Source: a virus. From it: a stretch of 9,917 bases of DNA. The first letter of the stretch is position 1. Each line of letters begins with the position of its first letter. The stretch is taken from the UHGV virus genome UHGV-0207821; one strand, given 5' to 3'. Shown piece after piece: positions 818-8,285 of this stretch. A model generated the notes under the pieces. That model ran no database searches. It saw only the letters and a program-made list of their open reading frames with translations, and was not told the origin of the DNA. The position numbers and the translations under genes were made by a program.

Positions 818-1201
818 TCAACCAATCAGCTTATAGCGACCATCCCGTGCATTGCGACGTACACGCTCAATCTTGAGGCATAGCGCCGCATCTGGCTTTT
901 TGGGGACAGGTACGCGGCAATATTCAGAAGCTCGAGGAATATTGTTTATCCAGTCGATCACTTCACTTAAATACCAGGCTTTACGCCCTTCCGTAACCTG
1001 TACGCGTTCGGGGAACTCTCCACGAGCCTCAAGGTTTAGCAATGTGCGACGGCTAAGGGTAGTAAGTTCCATCACCTGATTCATATCAACAAGGCGTTCA
1101 CTTAAACGCATTTTGTCAGCAATAGCCTTTAATTCCTCTACTGCTGGATCCGGATACATCATTTCGGCAATTGGCTTAAGGTCATTGTAATGATTCTGCA
1201 T
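818..1201 (-). CDS. AlpA/MerR-like helix-turn-helix DNA-binding protein, function unknown
   Basis: Central motif MELTTLSRRTLLNLEARGEFPERVQVTEGRKAWYLSEVIDWINN has the AlpA/excisionase-type HTH pattern. ATG at 1201 is preceded by AGGGGGA. Lies between the gpD-like gene and cos. Confidence 0.7.
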   Translation of the reverse strand: MQNHYNDLKPIAEMMYPDPAVEELKAIADKMRLSERLVDMNQVMELTTLSRRTLLNLEARGEFPERVQVTEGRKAWYLSEVIDWINNIPRASEYCRVPVPKKPDAALCLKIERVRRNARDGRYKLIG

Positions 1202-1212
1202 TGTATCCCCCT

Positions 1213-1554
1213 TTACACACGAGCCAGCGGCTGAACAGAAATACCTGAGCCAACAAACGCGGCAACCTTTGCCGACAGTTCTCTTACAGACTCAGGCCAG
1301 TTCAGAGCATCAACATTTAAAACACCTGTCTTATAAACCTGTGCCTGTGTTTTTTTCGCTGTGTCGATTTGTACAGCGGAAACATAAACCGCTTTGCCTG
1401 CGCTCGTTCCATCCCATACCACTAGCGCACCAGTTGCATCTTCCTGCATCAGTGGCGTAAACGCAGGTATTACCCCTTTATTGGCTGAAAATATCCCCAG
1501 CGTAGTAACCAGTGCTTCAGTGCCAGACATGAGTTCAGTGTAATGAGTAGCCAT
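1213..1554 (-). CDS. Head decoration protein, lambda gpD-like
   Basis: 113 aa; conserved blocks shared with lambda gpD from memory (TPLM, VVWDGT, YKTG, WPE, AAFVGSGISV vs TPLM, VAWDGT, YKSG, WPE, TAFAGTAISIV). SD AGGGGGAG precedes ATG 1554. Confidence 0.85.
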   Translation of the reverse strand: MATHYTELMSGTEALVTTLGIFSANKGVIPAFTPLMQEDATGALVVWDGTSAGKAVYVSAVQIDTAKKTQAQVYKTGVLNVDALNWPESVRELSAKVAAFVGSGISVQPLARV

Positions 1555-1563
1555 TGCTCCCCC

Positions 1564-2610
1564 TTAGCCAATGCGAACGGTAACAAAACGATTGATGCGG
1601 GCCGGTATTGGCTGTGGTGCAGAGTGCGTTTGTACGTACTCAATAGCCGGATCACCAGGCACAATATAGTTTTTCGGTGCAAGTTCGGCTTTAGTCAGCC
1701 CCATTCGGGTTAGCTCCGGATCCTGAATACCGCCATAGGCGACAATCCCCTGAAGAGCCGTATTGCCAAGCACCATCAAATCAGGATCAAGGAAATGTTT
1801 TTCAGTTCCGTCCTCGTCGGTATAACGTCCGCTGTAAACAACAATCGCAACATCGCCCATATACCCTTTAAAACTCACCGAATCACCAAGGTCTTTAAGG
1901 GCCGTTTCCAGTTCGGAATTAGAACCACGGCGGGTATCCAGAGCCTCTTTTATCGCTCTGAATGAACGGTATTTCTTCCATACATTACCGCCCATAATGA
2001 TGATATTAGTGACGCCCTCACTAAATTCTGCGTAGCTCTCAATATCATCATTTGGATCAAAAGTTTCTTTATCCTTACCTGACCACTCAGCACCGCCAGA
2101 CTGCGTGATAATATTTTGTGGTTTTATATTCCAGTCCAGTTCATAACGTTCAATACCATCGCCCTCAATGATATTTTTCCCCGTTGTGATTGCCTGAACA
2201 GCAAGCCATTCAATACGTGCACGTATAGCTTTAGCCTGATTTACAATCGCCTGTTTAACTTTAATATTACGCGCCCCAAAAGCATTGTATTGTTCAGGTG
2301 ATACACCAGCAGGGCGCACAGCTAACTTATTTGGATCAATGCTGCTTTTCGGTTTCATATAGCCAGGGCGAATTATTTTTGATTCGTATCCCTCATCTCG
2401 TGAAACTTTACTGCCCACCATAGGAGAGCAAAACGCCGCGATCGGGATATTTGGATCGTCGATCGTATCAAGAATAATGTCTCTCGATTCAAAGATTACC
2501 GAGCGAGTGAAAAACAAACTGGTAAACAACGCATTTAATTTTTTTTGCACATCTTCAGCATTAGCCACCTGCACAAGCTGTGTAGGCGAATATAAATCAA
2601 CCATACTCAT
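1564..2610 (-). CDS. Major capsid protein, lambda gpE-like (HK97 fold)
   Basis: Long collinear similarity to lambda gpE as recalled (MSMVDLYSPTQL vs MSMYTTAQL; DTRRGSNSELETALKDLG and GDVAIVVYSG essentially identical). Start is the ATG at 2610 (MSMV...) preceded by AAAGAGGA, not the ORF-track start at 2691. Confidence 0.9.
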   Translation of the reverse strand: MSMVDLYSPTQLVQVANAEDVQKKLNALFTSLFFTRSVIFESRDIILDTIDDPNIPIAAFCSPMVGSKVSRDEGYESKIIRPGYMKPKSSIDPNKLAVRPAGVSPEQYNAFGARNIKVKQAIVNQAKAIRARIEWLAVQAITTGKNIIEGDGIERYELDWNIKPQNIITQSGGAEWSGKDKETFDPNDDIESYAEFSEGVTNIIIMGGNVWKKYRSFRAIKEALDTRRGSNSELETALKDLGDSVSFKGYMGDVAIVVYSGRYTDEDGTEKHFLDPDLMVLGNTALQGIVAYGGIQDPELTRMGLTKAELAPKNYIVPGDPAIEYVQTHSAPQPIPARINRFVTVRIG

Positions 2611-2777
2611 CCTCTTTACATTCATTACAAATAATTGTGAATATATTCTATTACCGATGTCTGCTATGCGAATACATGCAAACAAGTGCAATGTTGTATA
2701 AAATATGCCGTGACAACTTCAGTGCTGATAATTCGTGTTAATGTATTTACTTCCTTTGGTCGGGATTTATGTAGCAT

Positions 2778-2821: not shown

Positions 2822-3244
2822 TTAAAACGGTATATTATCGCCGTACGGATCATCATTCCCCGACTGTTGTTTTGCCCTGTTCAGTGCGTCAGTGGCCTGC
2901 CCCTGCTGACCTTTTTTGCCGCCCGGTCGCGCCGTTCGCGCACTGATTACGCTGTCTGCGATAACCTGCCAGCCCCGCCGCGTTTCGCCGTTCTGGCCTG
3001 TCCACTGGCTTACCTGCATGTTACCCGCCACGCTCAGGAGTTCACCCTTGCGGTGCTTTGCCAGTGCTTCGGCCTGTCTGCCAAACGCCAGGACGGATAA
3101 CCACATCGTCGCCGTTCCGTCATCTGCCTGGCTGCACGGAAGTGGGACCGCCATACTCGCCATCGTCATTTGTGTACCCTTGCTGGTGGTCTTTAACTGC
3201 GGGTCAGCCACCAGCCGCCCGTAAGCCGCTATCTGTGCTGTCAT
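2822..3244 (-). CDS. ssb: Single-stranded DNA-binding protein (SSB), short form
   Basis: OB-fold region resembles E. coli SSB (QIAAYGRLVADPQLK vs KVILVGNLGQDPEVR; WLSVLAFGRQAEALA vs WHRVVLFGKLAEVAS). Gly/Gln-rich linker and acidic C-terminal tip DDPYGDNIPF (cf. DFDDDIPF). ATGA start/stop overlap with the upstream gene. Confidence 0.85.
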   Translation of the reverse strand: MTAQIAAYGRLVADPQLKTTSKGTQMTMASMAVPLPCSQADDGTATMWLSVLAFGRQAEALAKHRKGELLSVAGNMQVSQWTGQNGETRRGWQVIADSVISARTARPGGKKGQQGQATDALNRAKQQSGNDDPYGDNIPF

Positions 3245-3492
3245 GCTGTCTGCTCTCCGGTTTTAACGTTGATGGTTGTCACCTGTTCCGCTTCGGCAAT
3301 CTCCCGTTCTGTCAGTGTGGCAAAATTTGCCGCCGCCGTGGTCATGAATGCGCTTATCAGTTCGGGATGCGCTTTCGCGTATCCTTCTCCGGCGTGGCGG
3401 TCTATCGTTCTGATTGCCACCTTTAAGGCGTGCTCTGTCATGTCTAATGCGCGATATTTTGGTGCTGTTTTATCTCTGCTTTTTCTGGTCAT
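3241..3492 (-). CDS. Hypothetical protein
   Basis: ORF-track frame 3241-3522; start taken at internal ATG 3492 (MTRKSRDK...) so that it does not run over the iterons. Stop overlaps the ssb start (ATGA). Confidence 0.45.
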   Translation of the reverse strand: MTRKSRDKTAPKYRALDMTEHALKVAIRTIDRHAGEGYAKAHPELISAFMTTAAANFATLTEREIAEAEQVTTINVKTGEQTA

Positions 3493-3503
3493 TCCCCACC
3501 ACT

Positions 3504-3694
3504 CCCCACTTTTTCGCCTCACTTTTTAAGCTCCCCACATGATTTCCAACCTTGTTTTTTTGTGATTCTAATATGTTGTTTTTCAATGTGTTTTTTATTC
3601 CTCACTTTTGAGCCTATATACAGATTGAAAAGTGAGGGGCGCGGTTGCTTTTTGTTCAGTTCCTGCTATCCCCTCACTTTTGCGCCTCACTTTT
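3504..3694. repeat. Iteron array with AT-rich core, candidate replication origin
   Basis: CCTCACTTTT at 3517-3526, 3600-3609, 3672-3681, 3685-3694; variant CCCCACTTTT at 3504-3513; inverted copy AAAAGTGAGG at 3628-3637 forming a palindrome with the 3600 copy. T-rich stretch 3551-3599. Immediately 3' of the replication helicase gene. Confidence 0.55.
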
Positions 3695-5109
3695 TACAGT
3701 GGGCGCACATCATCACCGTCAATAGCGATAACGCCGTCTCTTTCCAGCTTGTACAGCCAGCGCCGGAAGTTTTTCATCTCATACCCCAGCTTTTTCATAT
3801 CATCGCGCAACAACGGGATAGTGCATTTATCGCCGCGCTGTGTGCGTGACCGGATACAGCCCCATAGTGCGGCGTGATTCTCCGTCTTGTTTCCGGCCTC
3901 CTCGATGCGCTCCAGTTCAACGGGTGGGCGCGGCTTATCCACAACCACCAGCGACGTGATTAACTCCTTGTCAGCGTCGGTAAAAAGCTCCACCACACGT
4001 AAATCATATGCAGCCTCTTTCAGTTCCTCCGCGTCCTTCATTTTGGTGCAGGAGATAACCAGGGCCTCACTGTCCGCGCCTTCGCGGCGGATCCGGTACT
4101 CAGCGTCCAGAGATGCACGAAATGCACTGGAACCACGCGCCCCTTTTGTTTCATCCTTGCCGGAATGGTGAACCACCAGCACCGTGGCCCCTGTGCGTCG
4201 TTTCAGTTCGTCACATCCACGGATAAACGCCCCCATATCCCGCGCGTCATTTTCATCATTACCGCCAAAGCAACGCGCCAGCGTATCCAGAATAATCATG
4301 CGTACCGGTTTACCCGTTTCCCGTTCAACCTGGCGGGATGCGATAACCATTTCATCAACATCAAACTGGGCTGCAGGAAAAATCGGGCGGTTTACCAGGT
4401 ACAGATTTTTCACCCGTTCATCATTAACGATTTCCCATGCCTTGATACGGCGGGGGACACCAATGCCACCTTCACCGACAACATACATCACCGAACCATG
4501 CGCCACCCTGCGACCTCCCCAGTGGCGACCCGTGGCAACATGACACGCCCAGGAACACGCGAGGAACGATTTATAGGAACCGCTCGCGCCGTATGTGCTG
4601 CACAATGAATTAGCCGGAATCACGCCCTTAACGACATAATCAAGCTGTGTGTCGTACCCTGCAGATCCAATGCTCATTGGTAGCGTGGTTTTTCGCTGGC
4701 TGTATTGCTCGTCAGTAAGTATTTCCCCGCGCTCTGCCTGTTCGCGGATCCGTTGCAGGTAGTCGTGCCAGTTCTCCAGCTTCTGACTGTGCATTCCCTC
4801 AGGGTAATAATTCGCATCCCGTACACCTGCCGCCGCCAGCTTTTGCCCGATGGCATTAATATTTGACGGCTTGATGTGGCCTGCCTTGTACAGTCGGACA
4901 CAATAGCGACCATCGTCGATAATTTTCAGGCCTGCCAGTTCGTCAAGCTGGCTGTCTCCCAGCCATACAGGCGGAACATTGTCGCCAGCAAGTCGCCCGT
5001 CCTGCTCCTGCCATTGTTTCGCGTGCGCCCAGGCATCACTACCCGCAAAAATAATGACTTCGGTCATTTTGTCGTAAGGCTGTTTTTTTAAGTTCGGTGC
5101 GCTTTTCAT
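3694..5109 (-). CDS. Replication initiation helicase, RepA/DnaB-like RecA-fold ATPase with C-terminal winged-helix domain
   Basis: 471 aa. Walker A-like YGASGSYKS, Walker B-like RMIILDT, then VLVVHHSGKD, typical of RepA-like (AAA_25) helicases. C-terminal LGYEMKNFRRWLYKLERDGVIAIDGDD looks winged-helix. SD AGGGG before ATG 5109; ATGA overlap with the upstream ORF. Confidence 0.8.
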   Translation of the reverse strand: MKSAPNLKKQPYDKMTEVIIFAGSDAWAHAKQWQEQDGRLAGDNVPPVWLGDSQLDELAGLKIIDDGRYCVRLYKAGHIKPSNINAIGQKLAAAGVRDANYYPEGMHSQKLENWHDYLQRIREQAERGEILTDEQYSQRKTTLPMSIGSAGYDTQLDYVVKGVIPANSLCSTYGASGSYKSFLACSWACHVATGRHWGGRRVAHGSVMYVVGEGGIGVPRRIKAWEIVNDERVKNLYLVNRPIFPAAQFDVDEMVIASRQVERETGKPVRMIILDTLARCFGGNDENDARDMGAFIRGCDELKRRTGATVLVVHHSGKDETKGARGSSAFRASLDAEYRIRREGADSEALVISCTKMKDAEELKEAAYDLRVVELFTDADKELITSLVVVDKPRPPVELERIEEAGNKTENHAALWGCIRSRTQRGDKCTIPLLRDDMKKLGYEMKNFRRWLYKLERDGVIAIDGDDVRPL

Positions 5110-5405
5110 TTCTTGCCCCTGAATCCGTTAATCATGGTTTTCAGCTTCTGGATGTTTGCCCGTGCCCTGGCGTTGCTGGTGGGCACGTTATGCGGCGCGG
5201 TCTGTACCAGAGAAAAATCACACCGGAACTGATAAACAGGCATCACGCAATCATATTCGTAACCTTCACGGCGGTAGATTACGCGCCGTTCTTCCACGCC
5301 CTTAATCATTACCGTGCCGCCGTACTGGTCGCGGTAAATATCACCGCGCGTAAATTTAGGGTGAGTGTTGCCACTGGCAGTTAAGCCAGAATATTTAAGT
5401 TTCAT
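5106..5405 (-). CDS. Hypothetical protein, translationally coupled to the replication helicase
   Basis: 99-aa ORF; SD GGAGAA upstream of ATG 5405; stop overlaps helicase start. No family recognised. Confidence 0.55.
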   Translation of the reverse strand: MKLKYSGLTASGNTHPKFTRGDIYRDQYGGTVMIKGVEERRVIYRREGYEYDCVMPVYQFRCDFSLVQTAPHNVPTSNARARANIQKLKTMINGFRGKK

Positions 5406-5870: not shown

Positions 5871-6103
5871 AACCCCCCCCCATTTTCACAATCAGCAATC
5901 AGGATGGCTTTGGCCTCATTCAGCGCCATATCCGCACTAAGTTGCATAACCGCCAGCGAATGAGGAACGAAAGCCCCGGCATATTCTGTTTCACTGGTAG
6001 CGTGCTTATGCGCCCTGTCCGCGATAACAGAAATATCAATCGGCGCATCAATCAGTGTTTTGATTGCTTCGGCGGCTGCGTCCGGACGGGTGTTATTGCA
6101 CAT
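5843..6103 (-). CDS. Hypothetical protein, upstream half of a possible poly-G frameshift pair
   Basis: 86-aa ORF; the G9 tract encodes the GGG in ...ADCENGGGLCVMIVLIP near its C-terminus. A 10-G tract would fuse it in frame to the 5637-5870 ORF. Confidence 0.45.
   Translation of the reverse strand: MCNNTRPDAAAEAIKTLIDAPIDISVIADRAHKHATSETEYAGAFVPHSLAVMQLSADMALNEAKAILIADCENGGGLCVMIVLIP
5873..5881 (-). repeat. Homopolymeric G9 tract (C9 on plus strand) at the junction of two ORFs
   Basis: Nine consecutive C on the plus strand at 5873-5881, inside one ORF and directly upstream of the next ORF's ATG. Confidence 0.9.
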
Positions 6104-6461
6104 GGTGCACCTCCTGGCGAATACGGGCGGCGAATACCATCACGCAGCCAGCCGGGGATTGCTGACGTGCTTCCTGTTCGCTGGTGGCCTCGATGTGAAT
6201 CACGCGCGGTTGTGCCGTGCTCAGGGCGATAAAACGCCAGATAAAATTGTTCTCGCATTTCTGAATAAACAGCGTGTTTTCTTCGCGCCCTTTCCATGTT
6301 GCCGAGATATAGCCCATGTCATTGAGCATCTCGCAGGCATCCACCAGCGTATCAGCGGCTACGTGTACAGTGTTTTTACCGTCAGCCATGCAATCACGGT
6401 GCACCGCCAGGAAGGTGTATATAAATTTAGGGTGAGTTTGGGTATGCTGTGTTCCAGCCAT
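6093..6461 (-). CDS. Hypothetical protein, first gene of the leftward operon
   Basis: 122 aa from ATG 6461 (MAGTQHTQTHPKF...), SD GAGGT about 8 nt upstream. Normal amino-acid composition, unlike the junk-like translation further upstream in the same frame. Confidence 0.5.
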   Translation of the reverse strand: MAGTQHTQTHPKFIYTFLAVHRDCMADGKNTVHVAADTLVDACEMLNDMGYISATWKGREENTLFIQKCENNFIWRFIALSTAQPRVIHIEATSEQEARQQSPAGCVMVFAARIRQEVHHVQ

Positions 6462-6669
6462 AATCGTTACCTCATTTAACGGTTTGGTTAGAAGCCCGGT
6501 TAGTGTTCGCGCACTGCCGGGTTTCGTCGTTTTTATGAATCGCTCATTGTGAGATACATAGCGACCCCCATGTGAGATACACATTATATTGTGGTGATAT
6601 ACATTGCAAGTGTTTTTATATCTCACTTTTGTGTATAGTGATATACACATAACAAATTGGTGATTAACT
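6462..6669. promoter_or_regulatory. Divergent regulatory region with operator-like repeats
   Basis: Four same-orientation copies of GTGA(G/T)ATACA at 6549-6558, 6572-6581, 6593-6602, 6639-6648; inverted partial TATCTCAC at 6619-6626; palindrome GTGTATA-GTGA-TATACAC at 6631-6650 just upstream of the RHH gene. Lies between divergent gene starts at 6461 and 6670. Confidence 0.55.
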
Positions 6670-6972
6670 ATGTCTGTATACAAAAATGCAAAATCGCAAA
6701 TGACAACGATCAGGGTTCCCCACGATGTTATGGAGGGCATGGAATCCGTAAAACTGGACGGCGAAAGCAACGCCGGATTCATAGTAACCGCCATGCGCGG
6801 TGAGATCGCTCGCCGGCAGGCAGAAGGAAGAGGAGAAAATCCCTTGGTTTCTTCGCTCGATGCACTGGCGCAGGTGGAAAAAATCGGTGTCAAAGCAGCC
6901 GAGGAGATCGGGCAACTCGTCACCGTCGCGCGTGAAGAACTCCAGCGGCGCAAGGCCAAAGAACCAGAGTAA
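6670..6972 (+). CDS. Ribbon-helix-helix (CopG/Arc-like) transcriptional regulator, candidate element repressor
   Basis: N-terminal MTTIRVPHDVMEGMESVKLDGESNAGFIVTAMRGEIARRQ fits the RHH strand-helix-G-x-S-x-N-helix pattern. SD GGTGA 6 nt before ATG 6670. Charged, helical composition. Confidence 0.6.
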   Translation: MSVYKNAKSQMTTIRVPHDVMEGMESVKLDGESNAGFIVTAMRGEIARRQAEGRGENPLVSSLDALAQVEKIGVKAAEEIGQLVTVAREELQRRKAKEPE

Positions 6973-7029
6973 TCACCATCAGCGCCGTGGTGTAAGGTAT
7001 TACGGCGCATTGCTATGCAGGACAACACA

Positions 7030-7203
7030 ATGACCGATAAAGAATTGACCAAAACATTATCACCGGCACGGAAAAGACGGCGCAGAAAGATAGAGCATGA
7101 ATCAGAAAGATTCGCGCCATGTGCTTTTGCTCTTGAGAAATTCCTTAAAGAGCACAGGAAAAAGCTCTCGTTGCAAACCTTGGAACGAACCAAATCTGAC
7201 TGA
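7030..7203 (+). CDS. Small basic protein, hypothetical
   Basis: 57 aa from ATG 7030 (SD AGGA 7 nt upstream); very basic (RKRRRRK). Co-oriented with the RHH gene and followed by a terminator. ATG 7015 is an alternative start. Confidence 0.4.
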   Translation: MTDKELTKTLSPARKRRRRKIEHESERFAPCAFALEKFLKEHRKKLSLQTLERTKSD

Positions 7204-7676
7204 TCACATTGCCCACCAGCCGCAAATGTGGCATTGTTGGTGATGCTCATGCGTTGGGGATAACGTGTAGCTTGTGTCGAGGGGCCACCGTAGCGGGTGG
7301 CCTTTGTTTTGCCTGTTATCCGGCAATTGTGGCGCTTCGCCACACGGTTGATATAATCCCACTGCTCAGATTCATTTTTTGCGCAGTAGGTTAATTGTTC
7401 ACAAAGGCGCTCCGGCAACGGGGCGCTTTTTGTTTTTATTAGTTTGTAGAAACCTGACTCAGAGATAATGCTCATATTCTGATTGCCGTCAGGGGGGTAA
7501 GTTAAATTTACTCCCTTTTCATCAAGCATCTGCAACGCTCTGGCGTTAATAATATTGGTTTCACTCCCGCCAATAAGGCCGGAAATAACCGGAATAATTT
7601 CAGCGAAATTTTGCAGATTCTGGTTTTCAGGCCGAACGAAGCCCCGCCCCTGTACAGGCGTATATCCAGTATTCAT
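7204..7676 (-). CDS. Possible Bro-N/antirepressor-like protein; 3' end undefined because the frame has no stop until 6093
   Basis: N-terminal ~125 aa from ATG 7676 look protein-like; NMSIISESGFYKLIKTKSAP resembles the Bro-N/antirepressor signature (weak, from memory). Beyond about 7300 the translation turns Cys/Ser-rich and runs antisense through the RHH operon and the operator region. The 7204 end is arbitrary. Confidence 0.3.
7283..7310 (+). terminator. Rho-independent terminator of the plus-strand regulator operon
   Basis: GGCCACC (7283-7289), loop GTAGCG, GGTGGCC (7296-7302), then TTTGTTTT (7303-7310). Confidence 0.55.
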
Positions 7677-7728: not shown

Positions 7729-7917
7729 TTAGTGAACTGCCTCGCGGCTGTCCTTCCATGCCAGAACTTCGGATAAAGACCAGCCAACGGAACGACCACC
7801 GAGTTTACGCCGTGATGGGAATTGTCCAGTCTTCTCCAGGCGATACCGACATGAGCGGCTCAGGCCTGTAAGTTGCTGACATTCTTTTTCACGTATAAAG
7901 CGATCTGTGCTTAACAC
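7729..7917 (-). CDS. alpA: AlpA-family (excisionase/Vis-like) transcriptional regulator
   Basis: LSTDRFIREKECQQLTGLSRSCRYRLEKTGQFPSRRKLGGRSVGWSLSEVLAWKD is a classic AlpA HTH. Start proposed at GTG 7917, preceded by AAAGGGGGA. The ORF-track ATG at 8025 would add a low-complexity T/N/P-rich extension. Confidence 0.7.
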   Translation of the reverse strand: MLSTDRFIREKECQQLTGLSRSCRYRLEKTGQFPSRRKLGGRSVGWSLSEVLAWKDSREAVH

Positions 7918-8285
7918 AATTCCCCCTTTGTTGTTTCTTAAAGAGTCATTGGGTGGATTATTGGGTTGGGTTGTGTCGGATTGTGTCAGGGTGTTTATGG
8001 AATGGCAAACACTGGTGGCGGTCATTTTACAGAAGTGGGGGTAGTGAGAATAAAAATCCTTTTAATTCATTATGATGTAAAGGCATAAAATTCTGTTTTT
8101 ACGCCTTTTTTACATGTTTTTAAGAGTGATTCGCCAATGTACAAAAAGCCAGTAAAACGACTGAAAATCAACTTTTTAGGGTGTCAGTCAGATGATAATC
8201 AAGTTTGTTCCAGATTGTTCGCCGTTGTTCGTCGTGGTGTCTCGTTGTTTCACGTTGTGTCCGTTCTAAAAAATCGCAAAAAAAA

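Follow-up and report, generated by a model that had tools for sequence, protein, structure and literature searches.

A RecA-fold Rep with an aromatic P-loop and no recognisable primase in a phage-inducible chromosomal island of Escherichia coli

Phage-inducible chromosomal islands (PICIs) and capsid-forming PICIs (cfPICIs) are abundant satellites which move virulence and defence genes. Their 'primase-replicase' genes serve as PICI markers, yet these genes have hardly been dissected in Gram-negative bacteria. It was demonstrated previously for EcCICFT073, the prototype of Gram-negative PICIs, that its rep and ori drive replication of a plasmid in DH5alpha with no helper phage present (PMC6092414), and the Reps of the pathogenicity islands found in Staphylococcus aureus (SaPIs) provide a precedent for initiator-helicases that load themselves, carry a C-terminal winged helix and have iterons 3' of the gene (PMC9371898). 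Here we analyzed a replication gene, referred to as rep, in UHGV virus genome UHGV-0207821; the whole stretch of 9,917 nucleotides is referred to as the window. The gene is read as encoding the Rep initiator-helicase of an EcCICFT073-type PICI, an active ATPase which lacks a catalytic primase and is primed by the host, and we give this reading a probability of about 0.6. Genes of this family are common and have been annotated before, and PICI Reps are a known class.

The rep gene and its P-loop

An open reading frame (ORF) of 471 amino acids with an ATG start fills positions 3694-5109 exactly on the minus strand, while translation of the plus strand over the same interval gives many stops; the extent given in an earlier note on this DNA therefore stands, with the strand corrected to minus. 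Residues 152-320 match Pfam AAA_25 (PF13481) with an E-value of 3.2e-44 (151 bits against a cut-off of 27), and the match to phrog_2850 spans the full length of Rep. The sole solved structure reached by sequence is RSF1010 RepA (1G8Y), with an E-value of 0.019 for the single sequence and 3.6e-5 for a 17-sequence profile. Over the gene, the DNA is 100% identical to a coding sequence of E. coli TW10590 annotated by NCBI as 'helicase RepA family protein'. The window aligns to TW10590 in two blocks (99.6% and 96.8% identity), and its source is thus another, though closely related, strain. When 1.84 billion representatives were searched exhaustively with HMMER, 31,596 relatives of Rep were returned at E<=0.001, and related rep copies are present in 1156 of 5426 complete E. 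coli genomes.

The glycine before the Walker A lysine is nearly universal in P-loop NTPases. In Rep, residues 174-181 read GASGSYKS, and Tyr179 aligns to the second glycine of RepA SPGGAGKS in both HMMER alignments. The canonical Walker A motif GxxxxGK[ST] is thus departed from at the second glycine, while the lysine and serine are kept. The earlier note had described a non-canonical Walker A motif followed by intact RepA-like motifs, and both points are confirmed by the translation and the RepA alignments: Glu213, Asp275, His314-His315 and Arg325 are all present. It had also treated the tyrosine as an oddity of this protein, which does not hold, since Tyr or Phe proved to be the majority state of a large clade. 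The residue before the Walker A lysine was counted in the best 150 clusters at 50% identity, 141 of which have an alignable core. It is Tyr in 48 of these, Phe in 39, Gly in 39, Leu in 9 and another residue in 5; the nearest clusters, about 35 in number, carry Tyr or Phe throughout. About two-thirds of the nearest clusters share the Walker A deviation, which therefore marks a subclade and leaves membership of the AAA_25/RepA-like family standing. In the 97 clusters with Tyr, Phe or Leu, the Walker A lysine and serine, Glu213, Asp275, His314-His315 and Arg325 are kept at 95-100%, the same as in the Gly clusters.

Closer to Rep, 17 homologues reaching down to 60% identity all carry the string YG[AP]SGSYKSFLA unchanged. 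Over six loci the eight P-loop codons vary synonymously (TAT or TAC for Tyr; TCG, AGT or AGC for Ser) with the peptide remaining constant. This invariance together with the synonymous variation indicates that Tyr179 is under selection. On a neighbour-joining tree built with the P-loop columns removed, the P-loop state changes about 25 times, compared with about 47 times when labels are shuffled; as judged from this tree, the state is inherited but repeatedly switched. A Tyr or Phe P-loop is also found in fusions of a zinc-ribbon-Toprim primase to the helicase. Since the Tyr state is shared with such bona fide primase-helicases, it is unrelated to the missing primase and gives no sign of inactivation. 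Taken together, the sequence comparisons lead us to regard the aromatic P-loop as a working form typical of its clade, not as a lesion. A literature search on the P-loop strings gave nothing relevant, and no paper or solved structure with an aromatic P-loop was found, so that within the literature searched the clade-wide aromatic P-loop appears undescribed. A large clade of mobile-element RecA-fold helicases of this kind amounts to a natural test of the need for that glycine.

Co-variation of other residues with the P-loop state is weak, with a mutual information of about 0.28 at residues 165, 228, 244, 306 and 215. Relatives with a Gly P-loop tend to have Glu for Pro165, a bulky residue for Gly215 and an aromatic residue for Thr306, a weak tendency that is not corrected for phylogeny. 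The signal was rejected as evidence of compensation, being weak and confounded by phylogeny, with residue 306 lying at a strand end far from the active site. A full-length AlphaFold2 (AF2) model from a 17-sequence alignment reached a predicted local distance difference test score (pLDDT) of 64.7 overall, with values below 50 at residues 316-404 among others. As a view of how Tyr179 is accommodated it was discarded, the pLDDT being too low around the P-loop.

The N-domain, the source of primers and the origin

Residues 1-130, referred to as the N-domain, are predicted by AF2 with a pLDDT of 89.6 and a predicted TM-score (pTM) of 0.84 as a beta-alpha-beta-alpha-beta-alpha-beta-alpha fold, and as modelled this region is a real, separate domain. 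Searches of Pfam, NCBIfam and PDB sequences with residues 1-130 gave no match. Zn_Ribbon_Prim did not match either, and residues 1-140 hold a single Cys, so the N-domain has no zinc ribbon. Where the Toprim Glu would be, there is an invariant Ala22 (FAGSDA versus EG.AT); no DxD is conserved in the N-domain, the candidate position reading D/P-D/E/K with Asp or Pro at position 65. By comparison, the Toprim relatives carry EG.AT and (A/G)DND. The N-terminal RNA-polymerase subdomain of DnaG is absent from the N-domain. Across Rep as a whole, no archaeo-eukaryotic primase (AEP)/PrimPol or PriCT domain was matched in Pfam, NCBIfam or PHROG, and the D5_N and superfamily 3 (SF3) helicase domains are absent according to Pfam. 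The claim of the earlier note that no primase domain can be recognised is therefore upheld, and the structure and profile check that it had suggested for the N-terminus yielded a confident AF2 fold with no clear AEP or Toprim homology. As far as sequence can tell, our verdict is that Rep contains no recognisable functional primase.

A distant relationship to Toprim was looked for in several ways. Foldseek of the N-domain model against the PDB gave nothing significant, and against BFVD it placed DnaG entries at ranks 5 and 29, below significance. The sole significant structural match of the N-domain was BFVD A0A6J5LID1, a 112-amino-acid uncharacterised protein of an uncultured tailed phage (E 6.5e-5, TM-score 0.57/0.69, 18% identity), and the fold may therefore, as the models have it, also exist as a free phage protein. 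An hhalign comparison of the N-domain alignment with the Toprim regions of the relatives gave a probability of 0.2%, and hmmsearch with all filters off gave 1-2 bits in two incompatible registers; Toprim homology could not be demonstrated by sequence. The sole sequence hint comes from BLAST, which aligns NWHDYLQR to DWDDYRQK, the motif closing the Toprim domain of the relative P0123. The acidic residues Glu17, Asp25, Glu35 and Asp43 of the N-domain are conserved. The modelled fold weakly resembles Toprim, and the N-domain may be what is left of a Toprim domain that has degenerated, as has happened in metazoan Twinkle. Probably, it is a degenerate Toprim-like or adaptor domain working with the co-translated DUF4222 protein.

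The surroundings of the N-domain show it to be a cassette that is shared between motors. Proteins most closely related to Rep in motor and winged helix (49-67% identity) have either Zn_Ribbon_Prim plus Toprim_3 or PriCT_2 where Rep has the N-domain. Conversely, the N-domain also stands at the head of two ATPases unrelated to the AAA_25 motor. One is the EcCICFT073 Rep, of the D5_N/SF3/Pox_D5 type, to whose N-terminus it is 61% identical over residues 1-134; the other is a DUF927 protein, with 82% identity to the N-terminus. Whichever motor follows, a DUF4222 gene lies directly upstream of the N-domain Rep with a 4-nt overlap in 9 of 9 loci, while both Toprim-bearing relatives have no DUF4222 upstream. 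In the window this overlap is the ATGA at the rep start codon, in agreement with the translational coupling that the earlier note had seen. Its suggestion that one of the small upstream ORFs supplies priming or loading survives in part: these ORFs encode proteins of 77-99 amino acids without primase features, so that nothing points to priming by them, and help from upstream is kept only in the testable form given by the DUF4222 linkage. A literature search on DUF4222 gave nothing relevant, and in the literature searched a DUF4222 and N-domain cassette common to three motor types appears undescribed. We consider it doubtful, though worth stating, that this pair is an unrecognised replication module, either a minimal non-canonical primase or an adaptor recruiting the host primase or replisome, which enterobacterial PICIs couple, instead of a classical primase, to whichever of three unrelated motors they carry. 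If true, it would explain the replication of PICI satellites encoding no classical primase. With motor, winged helix and iteron origin as one mobile block and DUF4222 plus N-domain as another, the loci map out how satellite replication modules recombine.

With regard to distribution, when the N-domain by itself was used as the query, most hits were Escherichia or Shigella fragments, and a scan of one genome per species found only 3 N-domain loci. In some E. coli genomes (P0281, P0283, P0345, P0353) the N-domain is fused directly to a single-stranded DNA-binding protein (SSB) domain, up to about 233 amino acids in all; these look like deletion derivatives which have lost motor and origin. A DUF4222 gene also occurs at L002 15192-15431 in a CFT073 lambdoid prophage, beside excisionase remnants and not beside a Rep, and DUF4222 is therefore not restricted to PICI replication modules.

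No other gene in the island resembles a primase by Pfam, NCBIfam, PHROG or annotation. Priming is most likely provided by the host, because the island has no primase-like gene and because no helper phage is needed for replication in DH5alpha of EcCICFT073 rep-ori, whose Rep has this N-domain and likewise lacks a canonical primase. The dependence on a host primase which the earlier note had considered is thus judged the most economical reading. The label 'primase' or 'DNA primase' on E. coli PICI Rep genes is probably wrong and without a catalytic basis, because the cassette they share has no primase catalytic residues; within the literature searched, this lack of a catalytic basis appears undescribed too. 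For the E. coli 'pri-rep' proteins, including the one Rep with demonstrated replicon function, the primer source becomes a directly testable question.

Directly 3' of the rep stop codon lie six iterons of the form AAAGTGRGG, where 0.12 would be expected, and no copy occurs elsewhere in the window. They flank an AT-rich stretch at about 3540-3599 (GC content 22-32%), and such an arrangement of iterons, AT-rich region and iterons is that described for PICI and SaPI origins (PMC6092414, PMC9371898). Five copies are AAAGTGAGG and one is AAAGTGGGG, at offsets 0, 13, 56 (inverted), 85, 168 and 181. In an E. coli locus whose AAA_25 Rep is 62% identical (L007), the iteron is AAAGTGGGG at the same six offsets. 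The zinc-ribbon-Toprim-AAA_25 relative in L010 has AAAGTGAGG in the same layout as the window, and an Enterobacter AAA_25 Rep with a diverged C-terminus and winged helix (L004) has AAAGTGCGG in a similar layout. The EcCICFT073 locus (L003), with a D5/SF3 Rep and the same N-domain, has the unrelated iteron GGTAGAYA. Across loci, the iteron type thus tracks the motor and C-terminal module and not the N-domain, and origin specificity therefore follows that module. AF2 places helices at residues 410-424, 431-440 and 448-457 and a beta-hairpin at 461-470 (pLDDT 84-93), so that residues 405-471 are predicted to be a winged helix, which we infer to be the part that binds the iterons. Because the iterons follow the motor and C-terminal module and the C-terminus is a predicted winged helix, the most suitable reading of Rep is as initiator and helicase in one; it would be an analogue of the SaPI Reps, with a RecA-fold motor as its base.

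Proposed mechanism and rival explanations

In the mechanism proposed here, a single Rep polypeptide would both recognise and unwind the origin. The C-terminal winged helix would bind the AAAGTGRGG iterons on both sides of the AT-rich spacer 3' of rep. The RecA-fold motor, RSF1010 RepA-like and of the superfamily 4 (SF4) type, would then assemble at the iterons, melt the spacer and load itself as a ring helicase; self-loading is proposed by analogy, and ATPase and helicase activity are ascribed to Rep from its motifs. The P-loop with Tyr before Lys would be the normal working form of the clade and Rep an active ATPase. The N-domain, as an adaptor or a degenerate Toprim-like domain, would replace the zinc-ribbon-Toprim primase and act with the DUF4222 protein. 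Host DnaG would prime the single-stranded DNA coated by the island SSB, whose IPF tip matches the host SSB tail, and Pol III would elongate from these primers. E. coli SSB recruits host replication proteins through its DDDIPF tip, and PriA is among the proteins that recognise it. The island SSB tip, DNIPF, resembles this sequence, and an ssb gene follows rep-ori with all three Rep types (the window, L003 and L006-L008).

Several points weigh against this reading. The literature turned up no biochemistry on Rep or on any aromatic-P-loop AAA_25 helicase; the only solved relative, RepA, has the canonical Gly; and the pLDDT of the AF2 model falls below 50 at residues 154-177, around the P-loop. 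Moreover, the replication experiment was carried out with the EcCICFT073 Rep, and all that the two Reps have in common is the N-domain. As the EcCICFT073 motor is unrelated, that published test does not cover the AAA_25 motor, and it was rejected as direct evidence for this Rep.

Alternatively, the N-domain, alone or with DUF4222, might be a cryptic, highly reduced Toprim-derived primase, in which case the element would prime itself like P4 alpha or T7 gp4. Its location is suggestive, since it occupies the exact place of the zinc-ribbon-Toprim primase in relatives with the same motor, winged helix and iterons and also the primase position of P4-alpha-type D5_N/SF3 proteins. Strict retention of the DUF4222 and N-domain pair across three motor types, the four conserved acidic residues and the helper-independent replication by an EcCICFT073 Rep that has this domain and no canonical primase would fit as well. 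However, the catalytic residues do not: the Toprim Glu position is an invariant Ala (FAGSDA versus EGYATA), the DxD position is not conserved, and with one Cys, no zinc ribbon and no DnaG-type RNA-polymerase subdomain we hold a self-priming Rep to be unlikely. The supply of primers would be solved differently if Rep only opened the origin and host DnaB were loaded on the SSB-coated bubble, through PriA/PriB/DnaT/DnaC or by recruitment through the N-domain, bringing DnaG with it, so that the AAA_25 motor would not be the fork helicase. DnaG binds DnaB, which would account for DnaG recruitment; the host-like IPF tip of the island SSB is one that PriA and other host proteins recognise; and an N-domain found on three different motors could be a common docking site for a host factor. 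But Rep retains a ring helicase's complete set of catalytic residues, with the arginine finger among them, its closest relatives are primase-helicase fusions with an architecture typical of fork helicases, and within this superfamily RSF1010 RepA and gp46 of phage F13 are both genuine 5'-3' helicases (PMC8965321). A hand-off to DnaB thus seems rather unlikely.

The least likely of the three rivals, and in our judgement a very improbable one, is that the exchange of Gly for Tyr kills nucleotide binding and that Rep is a pseudo-ATPase with an origin-binding or regulatory function only. The near universality of that glycine is a general argument for such a loss, as is the fact that literature and structure searches found no characterised aromatic-P-loop enzyme of the AAA_25 family. 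On the other hand, the Lys, Ser, Glu, Asp, His-His and Arg residues are as well kept in the Tyr/Phe/Leu clusters as in the Gly clusters, and the repeated switches of state on the tree occurred without loss of the other motifs. The presence of the aromatic state in primase-helicase fusions, the synonymous variation of the P-loop codons and the large number of E. coli genomes with related copies likewise argue against an inactive protein. An active, host-primed initiator-helicase is therefore preferred.

Island context and comparison with known systems

The island that holds rep measures about 10 kb and is flanked by smrA and abgR. Its genes run in the order integrase, AlpA, YlcI/YnfO, Icd-like, three small ORFs, DUF4222 and rep, and after rep a 200-bp gap, a small ORF, SSB, a lambda-E-type capsid gene, a head decoration gene, an excisionase-like helix-turn-helix (HTH) protein and TerS. 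This order matches EcCICFT073 (PMC6092414), and the island is thus a PICI of that type. The features are listed in Table 1.

Table 1. Positions in the window of rep, its parts and the neighbouring features
Feature	Position	Strand	Basis
rep gene, initiator-helicase (N-domain, RecA-fold AAA_25 motor and winged helix)	3694..5109	-	ORF, Pfam, NCBI annotation, phrog_2850
N-domain, residues 1-130, alpha/beta cassette without catalytic primase motifs	4720..5109	-	
RecA-fold ATPase/helicase core, residues 146-395	3925..4674	-	Pfam AAA_25 residues 152-320; RSF1010 RepA match
Walker A/P-loop GASGSYKS, residues 174-181 (Tyr179 codon 4573-4575)	4567..4590	-	translation, alignments
Glu213, catalytic glutamate, motif 1a (YVVGEGG)	4471..4473	-	aligned to RepA AED motif; kept in 98-100% of relatives
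Asp275, Walker B (IILDTLARCF)	4285..4287	-	aligned to RepA; conservation
His314-His315, motif H3 (VVHHSGK)	4165..4170	-	aligned to RepA; conservation
Arg325, candidate arginine finger (GARGSS)	4135..4137	-	aligned to RepA; conservation
C-terminal winged-helix domain, residues 405-471, predicted iteron-binding	3697..3897	-	AF2; iteron co-variation
Origin, six AAAGTGRGG iterons at 3504, 3517, 3600, 3629 (inverted), 3672 and 3685	3504..3693	.	motif count, composition
DUF4222 gene, 99 amino acids, coupled to rep by ATGA overlap	5106..5405	-	Pfam DUF4222 E 2.1e-24; 9/9 loci
Small conserved gene, phrog_1231, between origin and ssb	3241..3522	-	
Island SSB, ends ...DDPYGDNIPF	2822..3244	-	Pfam SSB E 9.7e-16; TIGR00621

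Elsewhere in the island, the minus strand of window 1213-2691 encodes homologues of the lambda gpE-type major capsid and gpD-type head decoration proteins, a pair that matches EcCICFT073 c1499/c1500, the role of which is unclear in PMC6092414. Portal, protease and large terminase genes were not found in the island. A second AlpA/excisionase-like HTH protein (phrog_2790) is encoded at window 818-1201 on the minus strand, with the decoration gene and terS as its neighbours and at a great distance from the AlpA near the integrase (7729-8025). Between rep and alpA, a 527-amino-acid ORF occupies window 6093-7676 on the minus strand. Only its last ~68 codons correspond to the annotated Icd-like gene, and over the remainder no gene is annotated in TW10590; the ORF probably reads through by chance. 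Within it, however, window 6243-6679 has no alignment to TW10590, and the strain of the window thus has a different insert there. The Rep helicase family is also present in cfPICIs (L006, L007) and in an Enterobacter PICI within a prophage head gene (L004, L005). The Enterobacter island (L004 and L005, 1-3451 and 9062-10978) lies between a prophage portal/protease gene and a protease-capsid fusion gene, and this copy looks like the helper-embedded PICI configuration of PMC10111431.

Among known systems, RSF1010 RepA (PDB 1G8Y/1NLF/1OLO) resembles Rep in its RecA-fold motor and in the order of P-loop, catalytic Glu, Walker B DTL, HH motif and Arg finger. The similarity is remote, however: RepA has the canonical SPGGAGKS, no N-domain and no winged helix, and in RSF1010 origin recognition (RepC) and priming (RepB') are carried out by separate proteins. 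Much closer are the proteins composed of zinc ribbon, Toprim, AAA_25 and winged helix (P0121 in L010, P0123 in L009), which follow the logic of T7 gp4. Their motor and winged helix are 49-67% identical to those of Rep and their P-loop is the same GASGSYKS; L010 also has the AAAGTGAGG iteron origin directly after the stop codon and AlpA upstream, as in the window. In contrast to Rep, a DnaG-type primase (Zn_Ribbon_Prim plus Toprim_3, with EG.AT, DxD and DWDDY) takes the place of the N-domain, and there is no DUF4222 gene. Metazoan Twinkle (PDB 7T8B) differs in that homology of its N-terminal domain to the T7 primase is clear by sequence, and its motor is DnaB/gp4-like and not RepA-like. Phage P4 alpha, according to the literature, is likewise a satellite replication protein combining origin binding and helicase in an AlpA-type regulated island, but it has an active N-terminal primase (EGYATA) and an SF3 motor, neither of which is present in Rep.

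The EcCICFT073 Rep ('pri-rep', WP_000761835) shares with Rep the island architecture and the DUF4222 plus N-domain unit with its 4-nt overlap, and as in the window an iteron origin 3' of rep is followed by a small ORF and ssb. Its motor, D5_N plus SF3 (DUF5906) plus Pox_D5, is unrelated, and its iterons are GGTAGAYA. The SaPI Reps (Rep1, PriRep5; PMC9371898) have AAA+ motors (SF3 or minichromosome maintenance (MCM)-like, 3'-5') instead of a RecA fold, with an AEP-type Pri either separate or fused. Nevertheless, like Rep they combine initiator and helicase in one protein, which has a winged helix at its C-terminus and a domain of unknown function at its N-terminus, and immediately downstream of their rep an AT-rich region is bracketed by iterons.

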